Shown here: positions 2,941-30,205 of the stretch, piece by piece
Position numbering within the stretch: the first letter of the stretch is position 1
How the letters are laid out: each line of letters opens with the position of its first letter
From: Actinopolymorphaceae bacterium
Lineage (GTDB): Bacteria; Actinomycetota; Actinomycetes; Propionibacteriales; DAIQRJ01
Direction: 5' to 3'
Assembly (NCBI GenBank): GCA_036786375.1
Contig: DAIQRJ010000012.1
Location: 12,267 to 76,266, forward strand
Length of the DNA stretch: 64,000 nt
Notes under the pieces: model-generated
What the model was told of the DNA's origin: nothing
Database searches by the model: none
Seen by the model: only the letters and a program-made list of their open reading frames with translations
Position numbers and translations under genes: made by a program

Positions 2941-4657
2941 GTGACCACAGCCTCGCCGTTGCGCGACCCCCCGCCGTTACGCAACACATGGACGACCATG
3001 CTCTGCGACTCGCTCGAGAAGGTGTTCCCGGACACGAGTCCGCGTCCGATGGACGCGACGATCGGGTTCCACGCCTTCAGGGGTGAGACCGTCTCGGTCC
3101 AGATCGCCTTCCTGCCGCCGTCACTCGTCGACGGTGGGCGTCTCCCGCACGTCGTCGTCGACGAGATCGCCGTGCCGCCGGGTGTCCGCGCCGAGGTCGG
3201 CCTGGTCGATCTCGTCCCTGCCACCTTCCTGGCGTTCGACGATCACGACGCCGGCTACCTGCGCGACACCGCGGGTCCTCTACCCCGACCCGATCCGGCC
3301 GCTCGGTCACGACGCCGTCCAGCCCTTCGTCGGGCAGTGGCGCGCGATCTGGATCGACGTCGTGGTGGCCGAGAACGCCGACGCGGCCACGGTCCCGCTG
3401 ACCGTCACCCTGCGGACCACCGACGGGACGGAGATCGGCACCCATCTCGTCGAACTCGAGGTCGTCGCCGCGACCCTGCCGCCGCTCGGCCTAGTGAACA
3501 CCCACTGGTTCCACTGCGACGGGCTCGCCCTGCACTACGGCGTCGACGTGTTCTCCGAGGAGCACTGGGCGATCATCGACAGATTCCTGGGCATCGCGGC
3601 CGAGGTGGGGATCAACTCGATCCTCACGCCGGTGTGGACACCCCCGCTCGACACCCCGCGCGGGGCGGTCCGGCTGCCGGTCCAACTGCTGGGGATCCGC
3701 GAGTCCGACGACGGCGGGTACGTCTTCGACTTCGCCAACGTCCGCCGCTGGATCTCCCTCGCCCGCAACCACGGCATCGCCTACCTCGAGATCGCCCACC
3801 TGTTCACCCAATGGGGCGCGACAGCCACGCCGGCGATCTACGTCGAGCGCGACGGCGTCACCGAGCGACGGTTCGGCTGGGACGTCCCTGCGACCGACTC
3901 GTCCTACCGCCGCCTCCTCGAAGCGCTGGTGCCCGAATTACGGGCCGTGCTGGACGAGGCGTGGGGGAGCGACGTCTTCTTTCATATTTCCGACGAGCCG
4001 CACGGCGACCAGGCGACCACGTACCGCGTGGCGCGGCAGGTCGTCGACGACCTGCTGGACGGCTGCACCATCATCGATGCGCTCAGCGACTTCGAGCTCT
4101 ACACGTCGGGCACGGTCCCGATCCCGGTCGTGGCCACCGACGCCGCCGAGCCGTTCCTCGAGGCTGGCGTCGACCCGCTGTGGCTGTACTACTGCGTCGG
4201 CCAGAACCGTGACGTCGCGAACCGCTTCATCGGGATGCCGTCGAGCCGCAACCGTGCCCTGGGCGCCCAGCTCTATGTCACCGGTGCGGCCGGATTCCTC
4301 CAGTGGGGCTTCAACTTCTACCTGTCGTGGGACTCGAGCCGGGTCGTCGACCCGTTCCAGACCCCGGATGCGGCCGGCGGGTTCCCGGCCGGCGACCCGT
4401 TCCTCGTCTACCCGGGGCCGGACGGTGTGCCGTGGCATTCGCTGCGTTCGCGGGTCTTCGCCGAAGCGGTCAACGACGTCCGGCTGATGCAGATGCTCCG
4501 TGACCTCGCCGGTGACGACGCCGTGCGCGGCATCGTCGATCCGGACGCGACGCTGACGCTCAAGCACTACAGCCTGGACCCCGACCACTACCGTCGGATG
4601 CGTGCGTCGCTGGTCGAGCGGCTCACCGCAGTCGTCAGGGGTCGACGGGCGCGCTGA
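2941..4657 (+). pseudogene. DUF4091 / GH123-like glycoside hydrolase gene with a single frameshift near 3277
   Basis: The N-terminal frame (DSLEKVFPD...GYLRDTAG) continues in another frame (LYPDPIRP...THWFHCDGLA...WLYYC...GFLQWGFNFY...GDPFLVYPG..SLRSRVF). Removing one base from ggtcctctac restores G-L-Y-P-D-P. Confidence 0.8.
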
Positions 4658-24441: not shown

Positions 24442-25892
24442 GCTTCGTTGGGGCACACCCGGAGATCGCCGCCGCTGCGATCGACCTCGGGGCGACGTCC
24501 GGGCGTGTCGTGGTCGGGCGCGTCGCCGCGGATCGGCTCGACCTCACCGAAGTGGCGCGGTTCGCCAACACGCCCCACGAGGTCGACGGTGTCTGGCGGT
24601 GGGATCTCGCGTCGCTGTGGCGTGAGATCGGTGCCGGTGTCCGGGTCGCGGTGCTCGAGCACGGTGCGACGACGGTGGGAATCGATTCGTGGGCTGTCGA
24701 TTACGGCCTGCTCGATGCCGGCGGACGACTCCTGGCCGACCCGGCCTGCTACCGCGATCCGCGCACCGAGCGCGTGCTCGAGCCGGCCGGTGCGATCGTC
24801 GGGCGTGCCGCGCACTACCGGATCACCGGCCTGCAGTACCAGCCGTTCAACTCCGTCTACCAGTTGCTCGCCGAACCGCCGGATGTGCTCGGGGCCAAGG
24901 CCGAGCGGATGCTGCTGCTGCCCGATCTTCTGAGCTACCTGATGACCGGGGTGCAGGGCGCGGAGCGGACGAACGCGTCGACGACGGGTCTCTACGACGC
25001 CGTCTCGGGCACGTGGTCGAGTGAGCTGTGTGACCGGCTGGGGATCCCGACGTCGCTGCTCGCGCCGTTGGTCGAGCCCGGGTCGTCCGCAGGCTGGATC
25101 CGCCCCGAGGTGGCGCAGGCATGGGGAATCGACGCGGACGCACAGATCGAGGTCGTGCGGGTCGGCTCGCACGACACGGCCTCGGCCGTCGCCGCGGTGC
25201 CGGCCGACGGTGACCGGTTCGCCTACGTCTCGTGCGGGACCTGGTCACTCGTCGGCCTCGAACTCGACGCCCCCGTGCTCACCGAAGCGAGCCGGGCGGC
25301 GAACTTCACCAATGAGGTCGGCACCGACTCGACGATCCGCTACCTGCGCAACCTGACCGGGCTGTGGCTGTTGTCGGAATGCCTGCGTGCGTGGGCCGAC
25401 GCGGGCAGCCCACATGACCGCGACGAGCTGATCGCGCGTGCCGTGGAGTTGCCGGCCGGACGGTGGCGGATCGACGCCGAGTCCGCCGGGTTCGTCCCCG
25501 CGGGCGACATGCCGGCCCGGATCCAAGCGGCGGCCGCCCGACGAGGTCCGGCGCCGACCGAGCCTGCGGAGGTGGTGCGCTGCATCGTCGACAGCCTCGC
25601 CGTCGCGCATGCGGACAGCGTCGCGCTCGCCGGCCGGCTCGCGGATCGTCGCGTCGATGTCGTCCACATGGTCGGCGGGGGTAGCGCGATGGGCCTGCTG
25701 TGCCAGGCAACGGCCGATGCATGCGGTCTGCCGGTGGTGGCCGGGCCCGTTGAGGCGACCGCCATCGGCAACCTGCTCATGCAGGCACGCGCGGCCGGTG
25801 TCCTGCCGACCGGTGCCGAGGGGCACGCGGCGGGTCGGGCGCTCGTCCGCGCCACGCAACCGCTCACCCGGTACGAACCCGGCGGGCGGTAG
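24438..25892 (+). CDS. rhaB: Rhamnulokinase (FGGY family)
   Basis: AIDLGATSGRV, GIDSWAVDYGLLD, ERTNASTTGL, SHDTASAV, SCGTWSLVG, GPVEATAIGN. Confidence 0.92.
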   Translation: MSFVGAHPEIAAAAIDLGATSGRVVVGRVAADRLDLTEVARFANTPHEVDGVWRWDLASLWREIGAGVRVAVLEHGATTVGIDSWAVDYGLLDAGGRLLADPACYRDPRTERVLEPAGAIVGRAAHYRITGLQYQPFNSVYQLLAEPPDVLGAKAERMLLLPDLLSYLMTGVQGAERTNASTTGLYDAVSGTWSSELCDRLGIPTSLLAPLVEPGSSAGWIRPEVAQAWGIDADAQIEVVRVGSHDTASAVAAVPADGDRFAYVSCGTWSLVGLELDAPVLTEASRAANFTNEVGTDSTIRYLRNLTGLWLLSECLRAWADAGSPHDRDELIARAVELPAGRWRIDAESAGFVPAGDMPARIQAAAARRGPAPTEPAEVVRCIVDSLAVAHADSVALAGRLADRRVDVVHMVGGGSAMGLLCQATADACGLPVVAGPVEATAIGNLLMQARAAGVLPTGAEGHAAGRALVRATQPLTRYEPGGR

Positions 25893-25916
25893 CCGACCGT
25901 CCGCAACACCTAGCGC

Positions 25917-27104
25917 TCAGCCGCGCACGTCACTCCACGGTCGCGCCATGATCTCGGCGAAACCGTCCTCGTCGATCTCGACGCCGAGCCCGGGCCTGGT
26001 CGGAACCGCGACGCAGCCGTCGTCGCCGAGCACGAACGGCTCGCGCAGATAACCCCGGCCGATGATCGTCTCGCCGTGCATCCGCGAGTCGTTGACCTCG
26101 TTGTGCTCCTGCACGAGGAAGTTCGGGATCACGGCATCGAGCTGGATCGACGCGGCCAGCGCGAGCGGGCTCAACGGGCAGTGCAGGGCGACTTTCGCGT
26201 AGCCGGCTTCGGCGATGGCCGCGATCTTGCGGCACTCGGTGATGCCGCCGGCGTGGGCGAGGTCGGGCTGGACGACGGCGAGGGCACCACTTCTGACGGC
26301 GTCGAAGAACACCCACTTGCCCATCCAGCGCTCACCCGCGGCCAGGGGCGCGGTGGTGTGCCGGGCGATGTCGGCCAGCGTCTCCGTCCGTTCGATCGGC
26401 ATCGGCTCCTCGACGAACAGCGGACGGTGCGGCGTGAGCGCCTCGATCAGCTGCATCCCTATGCGGGGATGCGGATTGTGGATGTCGATGGCGACGTCCA
26501 CGTCGGGTCCGGCGCCTTCGCGGACGGCCGCGAACAGATCCGCGATGCGGTCGACGTCCGAGGTCGTCTCGAGCCCGCCACCAGGGGCGACATGCGCCTT
26601 CAACGCACGGAATCCCCACTCCTGCACGAGAATCCGGGCACAGTCGGCCCAGGCGTCGCGGTTCCAGCGGTCGCCCAACGGTGGCCGGTAGCCGGCGCGG
26701 TAGGGCTGGCCGGGCTCGACGCAGTGCGGTGGCGCGTGCCCGACGGCGCGGTACATCTTGATGCGATCGCGGGTCGCGCCGCCGAGAAGCTGATGGACCG
26801 GCAGACCCGCCGCTTTTCCGGCGATGTCCCACAACGCCATGTCGATGCCGCTGATCGCACTCATCGTGACCGCGCCGCCTTTGTAGCCCAGGCCACCCTC
26901 GTACATGGATGCCCAGAGGGCTTCGATGCGGAGCGGGTCCTGGCCGATCAGCAGCGGCTCGAGCCGCTTCACCTCGGCGATCACGCTGTCGCCGTGGTTC
27001 TCCAGGTAGGGCTCGCCCGAGCCCACCAGCCCGTCGTCGGTGTGCACCCGCAGCCAGACCCATGACGGCGGCACCTTCAGAAACTCGAGCCGGGTGATCT
27101 TCAT
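25917..27104 (-). CDS. Mandelate racemase/enolase superfamily dehydratase, galactonate dehydratase-like
   Basis: MKITRLEFLKVPPSWVWLRVHTDDG..G.GE, AISGIDMALWDI.GK, AIDIH, FVEEP, AAGER, QPDLAHAGGITE, HCPLSP. Confidence 0.85.
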   Translation of the reverse strand: MKITRLEFLKVPPSWVWLRVHTDDGLVGSGEPYLENHGDSVIAEVKRLEPLLIGQDPLRIEALWASMYEGGLGYKGGAVTMSAISGIDMALWDIAGKAAGLPVHQLLGGATRDRIKMYRAVGHAPPHCVEPGQPYRAGYRPPLGDRWNRDAWADCARILVQEWGFRALKAHVAPGGGLETTSDVDRIADLFAAVREGAGPDVDVAIDIHNPHPRIGMQLIEALTPHRPLFVEEPMPIERTETLADIARHTTAPLAAGERWMGKWVFFDAVRSGALAVVQPDLAHAGGITECRKIAAIAEAGYAKVALHCPLSPLALAASIQLDAVIPNFLVQEHNEVNDSRMHGETIIGRGYLREPFVLGDDGCVAVPTRPGLGVEIDEDGFAEIMARPWSDVRG

Positions 27105-27170
27105 GGGTGTTGTCGCACTTCCGATCGAGTCGGTATATCGGGCCGGGCGGACGGCGGCGCGCGCGCCAAA

Positions 27171-27227
27171 CGAGACTGCAGAAGAACCGCACCCAGCGAC
27201 AACCGCGACCGGTTCTTCTGCAGTTCG
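27171..27227. repeat. REP-like hairpin, left copy
   Basis: Perfect 15-bp arms ACTGCAGAAGAACCG (27175-27189) / CGGTTCTTCTGCAGT (27210-27224) with a 20-nt loop. Confidence 0.85.
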
Positions 27228-27244
27228 ACGCCAGGGAACCCGTG

Positions 27245-27281
27245 TTGTCCACAGTTGCATGCGCGTCCGTGGTCGTCCACA
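27245..27281 (+). promoter_or_regulatory. Two directly oriented DnaA-box-like 9-mers: TTGTCCACA (27245-27253) and TCGTCCACA (27273-27281)
   Basis: The first matches the actinobacterial consensus TTGTCCACA exactly; the second has one mismatch. Both are followed by G and are 28 bp apart. Confidence 0.55.
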
Positions 27282-27333
27282 GATCGGACCGGCAACGGTC
27301 GGATCCGTCCGCTCCTGGCTCAGGCTGCGGTGC

Positions 27334-28206
27334 ATGACCGCGAGAGAACCCGTTCCCGAACGCCTGGCGCGAGGTCCCTTCACCACCCGCGACGGACTGC
27401 GTCACGGCATCGGGCGGCACGTGCTGGAAGGCCGTGCGATCGCGAGGGTCACCCGCGGCGTCCATGTCGTCGGCCACGTCGATGAGACGGCTCTGCTCAA
27501 AGGCCTCCTGCTGGTGCTTCCCGCGGGATCGGTGTTCAGCTGCCACACGTCCGCCCGCCTGTGGTCCCTTCCCGCCGGCTGGACGAACTCGACGCACGTG
27601 CACGTCCAGGCGCCGGGGCAGGTGCGACGAGCGGGCGTCGTCGCGCATGTCGGTGTGCCCGATGACGTCGTTCGTCGTCATGGCCTGCCTGTCACCTCGC
27701 CCGTCGCAACCTTTGTCGATCTCGCTGTGCATCTCGACGACGCTGAGTTGCTCGCGTGCGGCGATGCGATCGTGCGACGTGGCTTCACGACGGTCGATGG
27801 ACTCGTCGCGGCAACGGCTACGGCGACACGGCGTCGAGGGTCCGCTCGCGCCCGTCGGGTGGCCTCGCTCGTCCGTCCCGGTGTCGATTCGCCGATGGAG
27901 TCGCTCCTTCGGCACGTGCTGACGACCGCCGGCCTGCCGGAGCCGGAGGTCAACCTCGACGTCGTCGACAGCCACGGCGGGTGGATCGCCCGACCCGACC
28001 TCAGCTATCCCGACCGACGCATCGCGATTGAGTACGACGGACGGCACCACTTCGACGACCGCCGCCAGTGGGAGAACGACATCGCCCGACGGCACAACCT
28101 CGAGGACGAGGGTTGGGTCGTCCGGATCGCGACCGACCGCGATGTGTTCGTGCAGGCGGACCGGTTCGGCGCGGAGATGCGCGCCCTGTGGCGCCGCCGC
28201 GCGTGA
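27334..28206 (+). CDS. DUF559-type (Vsr/PD-(D/E)XK-like) nuclease with AbiEi-like N-terminal region
   Basis: SCHTSARLWSLP, PVTSPVATFVDL, DSPMESLLRHVL..AGLPEPEVN, ARPDLSY...IAIEYDGRHH, DIARRHNLEDEGW. Confidence 0.85.
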   Translation: MTAREPVPERLARGPFTTRDGLRHGIGRHVLEGRAIARVTRGVHVVGHVDETALLKGLLLVLPAGSVFSCHTSARLWSLPAGWTNSTHVHVQAPGQVRRAGVVAHVGVPDDVVRRHGLPVTSPVATFVDLAVHLDDAELLACGDAIVRRGFTTVDGLVAATATATRRRGSARARRVASLVRPGVDSPMESLLRHVLTTAGLPEPEVNLDVVDSHGGWIARPDLSYPDRRIAIEYDGRHHFDDRRQWENDIARRHNLEDEGWVVRIATDRDVFVQADRFGAEMRALWRRRA

Positions 28207-28263
28207 GACTGCAGGAGAACCGCATCAGCGAGCGATGGGACGCGGTTGTTCTGCAGTCTCACG
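28202..28263. repeat. REP-like hairpin, right copy; overlaps the DUF559 stop codon
   Basis: 22-bp arms CGTGAGACTGCAGGAGAACCGC / GCGGTTGTTCTGCAGTCTCACG (2 non-Watson-Crick positions) with an 18-nt loop. Shares GAGACTGCAGRAGAACCGCA with the left copy, in the same orientation. Confidence 0.85.
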
Positions 28264-28294
28264 TCCCTCCAGGCCGCGGTAGACGCCGGCGGGG

Positions 28295-30088
28295 TCAGCC
28301 CTCGATCGCTGCCTTCTTCGACTGTGCTGAGCGGATCCGCTCCATCTCGACCTTCTCGGAGCGGTCGAACATGTAGATCCCGTTCTGCTCCTGGAACACG
28401 TCGGTCAGCTGCGTGTAGCAGTAGCCGAACATCAGCGGGTCGTCCAGCAGCGCCGCAACCAGGCCCTCGAAGCGTGTGTAGAACTCCTCCAGCGACGCCG
28501 GACGCTGCCCGTAGCCCCACGAGACGCTGCGGTCGTCGCGGGCGCCGGGCTGCCACCAGATGCCGCCGAACTCGCTGCAGAAGTAGGGCTGTCCCGCATA
28601 CGGCGTCGACCAGCCGGTCTCGCCCTGGTCCCGCCCGTTCTCGTACGGCATCCCGTCGGCCAACGGAGCCATCACCGCGGCGAACGCGGCCGGGTCCTGC
28701 TCGTAGTTGTGCGAGTCCCAGACGTCGGTCTCGCGAACCCGGTGTGAGTAGCCGGACGCGTCGAGCACCGGCCGGGTCGAGTCGATGGCCTTGGTGGCAA
28801 GGAACATCCCGGTCGTCACGTCGTCGAGCTGGGTGATCCGGTCGTGCAGATCCTGGTGCGTCTCGTTCAGCGGGCACCAGCCGACGATGGCCGGATGCGA
28901 GTAGTCGCGCTCGACCGCCTCCAGCCACTGGGTGATGTAGCTCGCCGTCGGCTGCTGGTTGTCGGAGTGATGACCGCCCACGTTGCTGCCCCAGTCGCCG
29001 AACTCGCCCCAGACCAGGTAGCCGAGCCGATCCGCGTGGAACAGGAAGCGCTCCTCGAACACCTTCTGGTGCAGGCGCGCCCCGTTGAAGCCCGCTGCCA
29101 TCGACAACTCGATGTCGCGGACGAGCGCGGCATCCGACGGTGCGGTGAGGATGCCGTCGCGGTAGAAGCCCTGGTCGAGCACGAGCCGCTGGAAGACGGG
29201 TTTCCCGTTCAGCAGAACGGCTTTCCCGTCGATGCCGACACTGCGCAGCCCTCCATAGGAGGTGACCGTGTCCAGGACGGAGCCATCCGCACCGAGGAGC
29301 TCGAGCACGAGGTCGTAGAGGAACGGGTCGGCCGGGCTCCACAACCGGACCGAGTCCTCGGCGGACAGGCGCAGCCGCACGGACAGGTCGAGATCGGCGC
29401 GCACGGTGACCGAGTCGAGCATCGTCCCATCGGCCGACAACGTCGCACGCACCGATGTCCCGGCACGATCCCCGCGGAGCGGGACGACGACATCGAACAC
29501 CGACTCGCCGACGTTCGGCGTCACCCGGGCGCGTTCGAGATGCACCTTGTGCGGAACGGGTTCCATCCACACGGTCTGCCAGATGCCGGTCGTCCTGGTG
29601 TAGTCGCAGTCGTGGTTCGCGTACTTGCGTGACTGCTTGCCGCCCGCCCGCACCATGTGCCGGCTGTCGCGCGCCCGGACGACGACCGTGACGGTGGACC
29701 CGCCGACATCACCCAGGTCGGCCGTGATCGGCGTCCAGCCGCCGCGGTGGCGGGCCACCTCGACACCGTCGGCCCAGATGGTCGTGTCGTGGTCGGACGC
29801 TTGCAGGTGCAGAAGCACGCGCTGACCCGACCAGGCCGCCGGGACCTCGACGTCACGCCGGTACCAGACGGCCTCGTGGAAGTCGACGTCGCCGATGCCC
29901 GAGAGTTCGGACTCGGGCGTGAACGGAACGATGATCTCGCCGTCCAGGGCAGCGCCGACGAGGCCTCGCTCGAACCCGGAATCTCCCGGGTCGAAGGCGA
30001 ATCCCCACACTCCGTTGAGGTTCACCCACGGCTCGCGGACGAAGGACGGGCGGGGGTATTCGGGTCGAGGCGTCTGGTCGGTGCTCAC
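28295..30088 (-). CDS. Glycoside hydrolase family 2 (beta-galactosidase/glucuronidase-like)
   Basis: PRPEYPRP..VR..WVNLNG.W.F, YTRTTGIWQTVWME, RLVLDQG, NGARLHQK, NHPS-like SHPAIVGWCPLNE, SEFGG, GYCYTQLTDVFQEQNG. Confidence 0.9.
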   Translation of the reverse strand: MSTDQTPRPEYPRPSFVREPWVNLNGVWGFAFDPGDSGFERGLVGAALDGEIIVPFTPESELSGIGDVDFHEAVWYRRDVEVPAAWSGQRVLLHLQASDHDTTIWADGVEVARHRGGWTPITADLGDVGGSTVTVVVRARDSRHMVRAGGKQSRKYANHDCDYTRTTGIWQTVWMEPVPHKVHLERARVTPNVGESVFDVVVPLRGDRAGTSVRATLSADGTMLDSVTVRADLDLSVRLRLSAEDSVRLWSPADPFLYDLVLELLGADGSVLDTVTSYGGLRSVGIDGKAVLLNGKPVFQRLVLDQGFYRDGILTAPSDAALVRDIELSMAAGFNGARLHQKVFEERFLFHADRLGYLVWGEFGDWGSNVGGHHSDNQQPTASYITQWLEAVERDYSHPAIVGWCPLNETHQDLHDRITQLDDVTTGMFLATKAIDSTRPVLDASGYSHRVRETDVWDSHNYEQDPAAFAAVMAPLADGMPYENGRDQGETGWSTPYAGQPYFCSEFGGIWWQPGARDDRSVSWGYGQRPASLEEFYTRFEGLVAALLDDPLMFGYCYTQLTDVFQEQNGIYMFDRSEKVEMERIRSAQSKKAAIEG

Positions 30089-30205
30089 GATCCCCAAGCT
30101 TGACCGAGCCGACCGCCACCTGCGCCCGCGGGTCCGCAGGACGGGACGAATTGGCCGCTGGTGGACGCAGCCGCCCGGCCGCCCGGTACCAGCCAGTGCA
30201 ACGCG

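Follow-up and report, generated by a model that had tools for sequence, protein, structure and literature searches.

A nuclease gene bracketed by related REP-like palindromes in an Actinopolymorphaceae bacterium and in many other actinobacterial genera

To our knowledge, no chromosomal enzyme linked to a dispersed family of palindromic repeats is well characterised apart from the RAYT transposases of repetitive extragenic palindromic (REP) elements, and we know of no description of such a pair in Actinobacteria. A locus in an Actinopolymorphaceae bacterium raises the question of whether a nuclease of a different kind could hold a similar position. At 27171-28263 of the stretch analysed here (64,000 nt of contig DAIQRJ010000012.1, hereafter the window), a gene for a DUF559-type nuclease lies between two long, related palindromes, and an earlier note on this DNA proposed that the nuclease may play the RAYT role for these hairpins. 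We find that this region is one copy of a conserved actinobacterial module, which consists of a palindrome, one or more candidate DnaA boxes with the promoter region, the nuclease gene and a second palindrome.

The nuclease gene runs on the forward strand (27334..28206) from an ATG at 27334 to a TGA at 28204-28206 and encodes 290 aa. The left palindrome, H1 (27171..27227), has arms GAGACTGCAGAAGAACCG and CGGTTCTTCTGCAGT around a loop of about 20 nt; the arms at 27175-27189 and 27210-27224 form 15 perfect pairs, extendable to 18, and the DNA fold has an energy of -20.8 kcal/mol (z = -6.2). The right palindrome, H2 (28202..28263), has arms of 25 nt, CGTGAGACTGCAGGAGAACCGCATC and GACGCGGTTGTTCTGCAGTCTCACG, which are 88% complementary (-23.1 kcal/mol, z = -4.0), and the stop codon of the gene is part of its arm. 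None of 200 shuffles matched the folding of either H1 or H2 as single-stranded DNA on either strand. H1 and H2 are direct repeats of each other over about 60 nt (27172-27231 versus 28205-28264) at a spacing of 1033 bp; GAGACTGCAGRAGAACCGCA is found on the forward strand in H1 and H2 alike, and both loops contain CAGCGA in the same orientation. The bracketing of the gene by two related palindromes of the same orientation, with the stop codon inside the right one, had been described correctly from the sequence, and no target-site duplication is visible, as had also been said, but the hairpins themselves make up a 60-nt direct repeat. The shared 20-mer (allowing up to 3 mismatches) has no further copy in the window, where the expectation from shuffling is 0. 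No Rfam family was matched by any hairpin type in either the gathering or the E-value mode, and a scan with the U-tract terminator consensus detected no terminator at either full hairpin of the window. Many actinobacterial terminators do not have a U-tract, so that the hairpins may still act as terminators.

To what extent do hairpins and gene go together in other genomes? The closest homologues all show an upstream hairpin, two TCCACAG motifs, the open reading frame (ORF) and a hairpin at the stop codon. This layout is present at the syntenic loci L014 (73-79% amino acid identity) and L130/L066, L016/L017 and L363 (51-74% identity), and also in L013 and L015 (61-69% identity), where the unit lies beside a different gene (VWA/Rv0959-like). 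A further 80 relatives were taken from GTDB genomes, including Kribbella, Jiangella, Promicromonospora, Actinomadura, Angustibacter, Phycicoccus and Nocardioidaceae. With a hairpin strictly defined as 13 or more pairs, no more than 2 mismatches and a loop of up to 40 nt, 36 of the 80 have a hairpin upstream of the gene, 38 downstream, 25 on both sides and 31 on neither side. The two hairpins of a doubly flanked gene have a common identical word of at least 12 nt in 23 of the 25 cases, versus 7% of cross-locus pairs. In these 23 pairs the upstream hairpin ends 30-104 nt ahead of the projected start, and the downstream hairpin starts between -17 and +86 nt from the stop. The density of strong hairpins is 1.8 per kb beside the gene and 0.17 per kb elsewhere in the same 436 kb, a difference of about 10-fold. 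The hairpin sequences are lineage specific, for example CGCCGAGTCGTGGA... in Kribbella, GTTGATCATGGAGAA... in Jiangella and CGTTGAGTGCTGGGTATTTG... in Promicromonospora. The nuclease gene is specifically paired with REP-like hairpins, family-wide and across many actinobacterial genera, and the hairpin-nuclease pairing suspected from a single locus is a general one.

Variants of this layout were also observed. The Kribbella units (L122-L189; for example L122 at about 2430-2460 and about 3360-3390) bear extra non-palindromic half-sites besides the two full hairpins: CCGCCGAGTCGTGGCGATTGG stands directly after the stop codon and its reverse complement directly before the DnaA box, so that the two make up an inverted repeat that spans the gene at long range. 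Some loci have arms or hairpins in tandem (L129, L143, L151, L177, L186, L189 and L194). In a Cellulomonas unit (L022, 2396-2408), the ORF crosses the outer stem and stops at a TAG within the hairpin (CTGCAGTAG; solo copies CTGCAGAAG), and a matching change in the opposite arm keeps the pairing.

The hairpins are not confined to the surroundings of the gene. A scan of all species genomes for the outer stem (GAGACTGCAG-N16-46-CTGCAGTCTC) returned 103 loci, about 73 of which are in high-G+C Actinomycetota (Cellulomonas, Microbacterium, Arthrobacter, Leifsonia, Micrococcus, Mycobacterium and others), and several genomes are multi-copy, such as the Cellulomonas metagenome-assembled genome (MAG) RM44_bin.050 with 10 loci and C. 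endometrii with 5. Of 74 hairpins, 63 have C-G as the next pair outside the 10-mer used in the search; at inner positions, pairing occurs in 62-82% of cases and includes all four pair types. Inner stems have an identity of 0.73 among hairpins of one genome and of 0.34 across genomes, a difference reached by none of 2000 permutations (47 hairpins from 15 genomes). Solo copies are in the majority; they follow stop codons at a distance of a few nucleotides and typically stand between convergent genes. Three genomes yielded a unit as well as solo copies (RM44, Micrococcus SUG2227 and MFD10113.bin.1.80), and in these the hairpins of the unit belong to the solo family and match its members in that genome (L022, L071/L051 and L066/L049). 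Among 73 hairpin loci, all five pairs of hairpins that are 1.0-1.2 kb apart enclose a gene of the nuclease family. A scan for the exact 20-mer in 185,579 species genomes, a set that does not include the window's organism, gave two chance matches only, in Firmicutes.

Related species keep solo hairpins at orthologous positions, in some cases with changes that compensate each other (L019/L035, L023/L077, L070/L106, L073/L081, L080/L104 and L052/L069). Next to its hairpin, L023 has 134 bp (3342-3474) that L077 lacks and that include a degenerate second arm. The outer-stem scan also matched a conserved, non-palindromic sequence of 53 nt, GAGACTGCAGCGAGTTTGT...TTTGGCTGCAGTCTC, in Ruegeria and other Paracoccaceae (L018, L025, L031, L044, L045, L056, L064 and L120), which is unrelated to the actinobacterial hairpins.

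The way in which the hairpins change is informative as well. In an alignment of nine hairpins from the orthologous units at the GH2 (glycoside hydrolase family 2) locus, 84.7% of cells are paired, compared with 32-48% in slid registers; 10 of 25 pairs show double-sided changes, and the observed covariation was reached by 0 of 500 shuffles. These compensatory changes in the stems indicate that the hairpin structure is under selection. The copies also evolve in concert, the two hairpins of a unit being closer to each other than hairpins are to their orthologues: CGCTCAGGGGCGGTTCTTCTGCAGT occurs in both hairpins of L014 and is absent from the window, and the outer stem is changed to AATWGTGCRG in both hairpins of L016. 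Moreover, the module recombines at its hairpins, and units are found inverted between relatives. The unit and the neighbouring VWA gene are 90% identical between L013 and L015, yet the unit, from hairpin to hairpin, is inverted relative to the VWA gene, and the breakpoints of the alignment fall inside the hairpins. A flip is also seen in L173 versus L178, and in L158 versus five loci with the same flank (L144, L147, L157, L159 and L181), the family proteins of this last comparison being only 47% identical. A palindrome is at once a direct and an inverted repeat of its partner, so recombination between the two can either remove the gene and leave a solo hairpin behind or turn the gene round. 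In a survey of predicted programmed inversions, "DUF559 domain-containing protein" is enriched among the predicted inversion targets with an odds ratio of 14.3 (Milman et al. 2023; PMC9881135). This enrichment, for inverted repeats that show inversion variation, fits the flips described here; the survey's table has DUF559 as a product name only, and no palindrome pair, solo copies or DnaA box is described with that entry.

Units lying directly upstream of rpsF-ssb-rpsR-rplI, in either orientation, were observed in a Micrococcus MAG (L071, 3300-5160) and in two Nocardioidaceae MAGs (L173, 417-1776; L178, 3661-5412). Either the unit has been at this site for a very long time or the site has been targeted repeatedly.

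What kind of protein is encoded between the hairpins? The sole Pfam match of the window protein is MTES_1575 (PF18741, a Vsr-type restriction endonuclease family) at 25.1 bits, under the cut-off of 38.2. Among 20 aligned relatives, MTES_1575 is matched in 20 and DUF559 in 12 (E <= 0.01). The label DUF559 given in the earlier note is therefore approximate for the window protein itself, which falls below the cut-off, while the relatives support the assignment and the fold confirms it. PADLOC profiles of AbiEi span residues 13-180 (E = 2.3e-10), NCBIfam gave no match for the protein, and PHROGs gave a marginal HNH match only. In Foldseek searches with an AlphaFold model (pLDDT 90.3, pTM 0.85), the N-terminal ~185 residues match the whole AbiEi antitoxin 6y8q (E = 2.4e-5, probability 1.0), and the nearest solved folds for the C-terminal ~100 residues, the nuclease domain, are the I-Bth0305I homing-endonuclease domain 3r3p (TM 0.72, probability 1.0) and NGO0050 3hrl (TM 0.73), the latter also found by a profile-based sequence match (E = 0.011). 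In the alignment of the 20 relatives, D222, E233, D235, Q245, W246, D249 and R252 are invariant; D222, E233 and D235 (motif IAIEYDG) are, from this conservation, the candidate catalytic acidic residues. By model and profile, the protein is predicted to be an AbiEi-like, sequence-specific DNA-binding module (~1-185) fused to a nicking-type PD-(D/E)XK nuclease domain of the Vsr/DUF559 (MTES_1575) type (~186-290).

The AbiE system, a type IV toxin-antitoxin or abortive infection system, was considered as an identity of the locus, as residues 1-185 match the whole AbiEi fold. It was rejected because there is no AbiEii partner: no AbiEii nucleotidyltransferase gene is called within 10 kb on either side, and the AbiEi-like part is here fused to a nuclease, unlike in AbiE. 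The nuclease family is very large, fast-evolving and chromosomal. It comprises 14,369 clusters at 50% identity with E <= 1e-3, 4,761 with E <= 1e-10 and 337 with E <= 1e-30, is annotated only as "DUF559" or "hypothetical", and is present in two copies in some genomes. The family was not found in the phage collection, and its plasmid matches are three weak ones, all on Arthrobacter records of 0.75-1.3 Mb.

Upstream of the start codon, on the gene side of the left hairpin, there is a conserved motif that the earlier note does not mention. In the window, the 9-mer TTGTCCACA at 27245-27253 on the forward strand is a perfect match to the DnaA box (TTGTCCACA / TTATCCACA) and the only TTRTCCACA in the 64 kb; a direct repeat of it with one mismatch, TCGTCCACA, follows 28 nt downstream on the same strand (27273..27281). 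CTGTGGA is found in 57 of 75 upstream regions of relatives, usually about 50 nt before the start, versus 0 coding controls, and the motif faces either way among these 57 of 75 family members. The family consensus from 61 distinct sites is G-T-T-R-TCCACAG-S-C, and the core of the position matrix is T-T-R-TCCACA. The clade of the window has 2-3 copies; the two-box arrangement is shared by L014, L013, L015, L130 and L016, and three boxes are present in L363. TTGTCCACA is the high-affinity DnaA box of M. tuberculosis and S. coelicolor, where the box is TT[A/G]TCCACA (PMC4285127). The upstream motif is thus a candidate DnaA box, which may be bound by DnaA or by the winged helix-turn-helix (wHTH) domain of the protein itself. 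A RecA-NDp/PafBC promoter was also considered for the TTGTC... motif and rejected, as the remaining bases misfit that consensus and fit the DnaA box.

How long the unit has been at its present location can be judged from relatives. In the window it stands between an enolase-superfamily (MR_MLE) sugar-acid dehydratase gene (25917-27104) and a GH2 glycosidase gene (28295-30097), both on the reverse strand; the unit is on the opposite strand, as had been noted, and H1 is placed between two divergent gene starts. L014 is co-linear with the window at 83% nucleotide identity over 25915-30167, and L130 (78%) and L016 (70-78%) are co-linear with the flanks of the window; altogether the unit is co-linear with GH2 and/or MR_MLE in L014, L130/L066, L016/L017 and L363 (70-83% nucleotide identity). 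At this locus the unit diverges at the same rate as its flanks. The window copy is an old, vertically inherited resident and not a recent insertion, and the impression in the earlier note that the unit sits between the sugar genes "as if inserted" is misleading for this window, the unit being orthologous in these relatives, at least four lineages in all. Elsewhere divergence is often quicker in the unit than around it, for example with identities of 74% for the unit against 82-86% for the flanks, or of 70% against 92% for a flank. One locus without the unit, a type that the earlier note suggested looking for in close relatives, was found: in L362, which at ~76% nucleotide identity is about as distant as L016, GH2 is followed by 250 bp and MR_MLE, with neither the unit nor a hairpin of the family. 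The unit is therefore not intrinsic to the sugar operon. This empty allele has no alignable junction, and all closer relatives carry the unit. GH2 relatives in genome contigs (none above 67% identity, none with MR_MLE or the unit downstream) and MR_MLE relatives in metagenome contigs (the best 77% identical among the matches listed, none with GH2 or the unit nearby) are uninformative about empty sites. We did not count as pseudogenes L066/L130, where an apparent frameshift may be an assembly error, or L014, where the gene call is 170 aa and the frame is open for 311 codons.

The organism is an uncultured actinomycete, and the window protein is also encoded on 16 metagenomic and MAG contigs from permafrost and soil (including MAG GCA_036564665.1), in the same context and with an identical unit in all. 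Two observations concern variation in these populations. Contig L012 (window 24807-28228), from a divergent strain, is a mosaic with flanks ~93% identical to the window and the whole unit (27124-28228) identical, the contig ending within H2; either strains have recently exchanged the unit or the assembly is a chimera of strains. A protein of 199 aa on a JGI contig of 10,199 bp (P0010) is an allele of the window gene, 99% identical over residues 1-154 and then diverging or truncated, which suggests a frameshifted copy of the gene in the same population.

These results could be explained if nuclease and palindromes are partners in the manner of REP/RAYT, the enzyme acting on its own palindromes by way of break and repair, a reading that we favour tentatively and hold at somewhat less than an even chance. 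The protein would recognise the palindromes of its own genome, probably at the conserved outer stem, either as a duplex or as an extruded hairpin or cruciform, and would nick or cut them, whereupon recombinational repair by the host would use other copies as templates. Such cycles would keep flanking and solo copies of one genome alike (concerted evolution), would invert or delete the gene between its palindromes, would now and then place a copy of a palindrome, alone or together with the gene, at a new 3' intergenic site, and would keep the gene linked to its substrate; the DnaA boxes would tie expression to replication status.

Like a REP/REPIN-RAYT pair, the module has a usually single-copy, vertically inherited chromosomal gene flanked by genome-specific palindromic repeats, with other copies of the repeat dispersed, in genomes other than that of the window, at the 3' ends of genes and a sequence that varies by genome. 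Unlike in REP/REPIN-RAYT pairs, the enzyme is of the AbiEi plus Vsr-type PD-(D/E)XK kind and shows no HUH/Y1 domain by Pfam, NCBIfam, PADLOC or fold; the palindromes are longer (57-62 nt in the window and 45-75 nt in relatives versus 20-40 nt); no GTAG-type tag was seen in the hairpin sequences read, which were not searched systematically for it; the copy number appears to be in the tens and not hundreds; and the module includes a DnaA box. HUH-style strand transfer, in which the enzyme alone cuts and rejoins single strands, is beyond a Vsr-type nuclease, and the only route of spread known to us for such a nuclease is break-and-repair copying. By analogy, the module may be a functional counterpart of the REP/RAYT pair that works by a homing-like break-and-repair process and not by HUH transposition, which we put forward as a possibility somewhat short of probable. 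With I-Bth0305I (3r3p) and other free-standing homing endonuclease genes it shares the Vsr-like nuclease fold and the position as a stand-alone gene between host genes; it differs from them in lying outside introns, in having its presumed target palindromes intact on both sides, and in being stably and not patchily present.

Several results weigh against the break-and-repair partnership. The units are stably syntenic within whole genera and at the locus of the window: at least 13 Kribbella species have the unit at one chromosomal site, and one shared site each is seen in four Promicromonospora, in four Jiangella and, for the Angustibacter group, in five loci; at best, then, the module moves rarely. 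Insertion disrupts a classical homing site, but the palindromes on both sides of the gene are intact here. The 31 relatives without a strong hairpin on either side must be counted here too, as must the paralog L121 (2300-3480), the second of MAG MFD10113.bin.1.80, which has no flanking hairpins; since this genome also has a hairpin-flanked copy, hairpin-less members coexist with flanked ones. The L121 protein is 62% identical to that of the window and its gene has TCCACAG motifs. The earlier note suggested testing whether the phylogeny of the paralogs tracks hairpin subtype, and at the level of the outer stem the outcome is negative: the Cellulomonas protein with GAGACTGCAG hairpins is nearer to the Promicromonospora and Jiangella proteins, whose hairpins differ. 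That the outer-stem type does not follow the protein tree argues against tight co-evolution of protein and site. The solo hairpins occupy sites where terminators lie. No solo copy was found within the 64-kb window, the part of its own genome that was read; the dispersed solo copies described above are those of other genomes. The outer stem in the genome scan is fixed by the search pattern, and palindromic terminators raise chance matches above the random-sequence estimate; the families are real because there are multi-copy genomes and the consensus extends beyond the pattern. Finally, any action of the protein on the hairpins, be it binding, cleavage or dispersal, is putative.

The same observations can be arranged differently if the hairpins are insulators, an explanation that we regard as doubtful but as the most serious alternative. 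The hairpins would then be bidirectional, U-tract-less terminators or stabilisers of mRNA ends, drawn from a REP-like terminator family of the host, that shield a dangerous, DnaA-regulated nuclease (for defence, restriction-like or for repair) from read-through and protect its neighbours, and the nuclease would act elsewhere; the likeness of left and right hairpins would come from insertion into an existing terminator with duplication, or from gene conversion between repeats 1 kb apart. The location of solo copies just after stops and mostly between convergent genes, the right hairpin that begins at the stop codon, a hairpin type that tracks the host and not the protein, and the stable synteny of the units are all as expected for insulators, and so are the weak similarity of the nuclease domain to modification-dependent restriction enzymes (PvuRts1I, mREase_II) and the chromosomal nature of a family with no representative in the phage collection and only the three weak Arthrobacter plasmid-record matches. 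What insulation leaves unexplained is why it should be this one family that has a like copy on either side, in numerous genera and although the hairpin sequences are unrelated, and how it comes that terminators at unrelated loci of one genome would share 73% of their inner stem. The 10-fold hairpin density beside the gene and the five of five close pairs that enclose a family gene also count against it, as do the missing U-tract and the left hairpin, which between two divergent starts would be a terminator useful to neither gene. According to the earlier note, the hairpins would be just terminators if their arm were unique to this locus, the paralogs lacked hairpins and the gene were syntenic across relatives; the arm is not unique and paralogs do carry hairpins, whereas the synteny is real.

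Alternatively, the hairpin arms, together with the Kribbella half-sites, could be operators bound by the AbiEi-like domain of the protein for autoregulation or looping, with a separate role for the nuclease and with palindromes that are not cleaved. AbiEi is the fold of a DNA-binding autorepressor, the outer stems are the conserved part of the hairpins, and CCGCCGAGTCGTGGCGATTGG and its complement lie on either side of the gene in Kribbella; we nevertheless find this improbable, as an operator needs no compensated pairing over 20-25 bp with a variable inner stem, solo copies at the 3' ends of unrelated genes would be unexpected, and the motif conserved family-wide is the DnaA-box-like sequence and not the hairpin. 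It is more improbable still that the nuclease is a passenger, with hairpins that serve as ends for an unlinked single-strand transposase (IS200/IS605 TnpA or RAYT, as in palindrome-associated transposable elements, PATEs) or a composite of two palindromic MITEs (miniature inverted-repeat transposable elements). Two like, subterminal hairpins of the same orientation recall the left and right ends of IS200/IS605, which, like PATEs, have two similar imperfect hairpins near the ends and no classical inverted terminal repeats, and the solo hairpins resemble MITE or REP copies. Yet the hairpins here are far longer than those of IS200/IS605 and PATEs, and each full palindrome also occurs solo; the cargo comes from this one gene family in all cases, however hairpin sequence and genus vary, the gene calls over the 20 kb surrounding the unit include no transposase, the units are syntenic across genera instead of patchy, and the family's absence from the phage collection and its three weak plasmid-record matches do not suit a travelling cargo. 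TnpA and TnpB were found neither in the unit nor among the called genes of contigs L003/L004. That two unrelated, look-alike terminators flank the gene by a coincidence specific to this locus is suggested by the lack of another copy in the window and by the synteny of the gene in relatives, and we give it hardly any credence: the architecture recurs in dozens of genomes with different hairpins and the arm occurs elsewhere, so pure coincidence is excluded. An integron cassette with attC was likewise considered and rejected, the locus being a single unit between sugar-metabolism genes with no array and no integrase in the 20-kb neighbourhood.

In the wider surroundings, the module is at the edge of a rhamnose-utilisation cluster (window ~17300-38200, from the gene calls on contigs L003/L004), with genes for a rhamnosidase, a RhaM mutarotase, an aldolase/short-chain dehydrogenase fusion and an FGGY kinase in addition to the MR_MLE dehydratase and GH2. 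Beyond GH2 there is a pair of genes for an Ada/AlkA regulator-glycosylase and an O6-alkylguanine methyltransferase.

The gene family, the AbiEi fold and the Vsr fold are known already. In the literature on DUF559/MTES_1575 with palindromes, repeats, homing or selfish elements, we did not find the architecture of a palindrome pair, solo copies, DnaA box and flips described, and a search for REP and RAYT in Actinobacteria found no paper. The break-and-repair partnership, extended to its full scope, would define an Actinomycetota-wide class of repeat plus enzyme not recognised before, in which a PD-(D/E)XK nicking nuclease in place of an HUH transposase, expressed in step with replication through DnaA boxes, generates, homogenises, inverts and spreads long palindromes of a genome-specific family by break-induced copying, as a second, mechanistically independent invention of the REP/RAYT lifestyle; at this breadth we think the proposal unlikely but not implausible. 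If the nuclease does act on the palindromes, a function would be assigned to the family, the origin and homogeneity of long palindromic repeats in high-G+C genomes would be explained, the inversion signal of DUF559 genes would be accounted for, and a sequence- or structure-specific hairpin nuclease would be at hand as a possible tool. Even if the hairpins are insulators only, they would provide a useful annotation and a boundary marker for this nuclease family.

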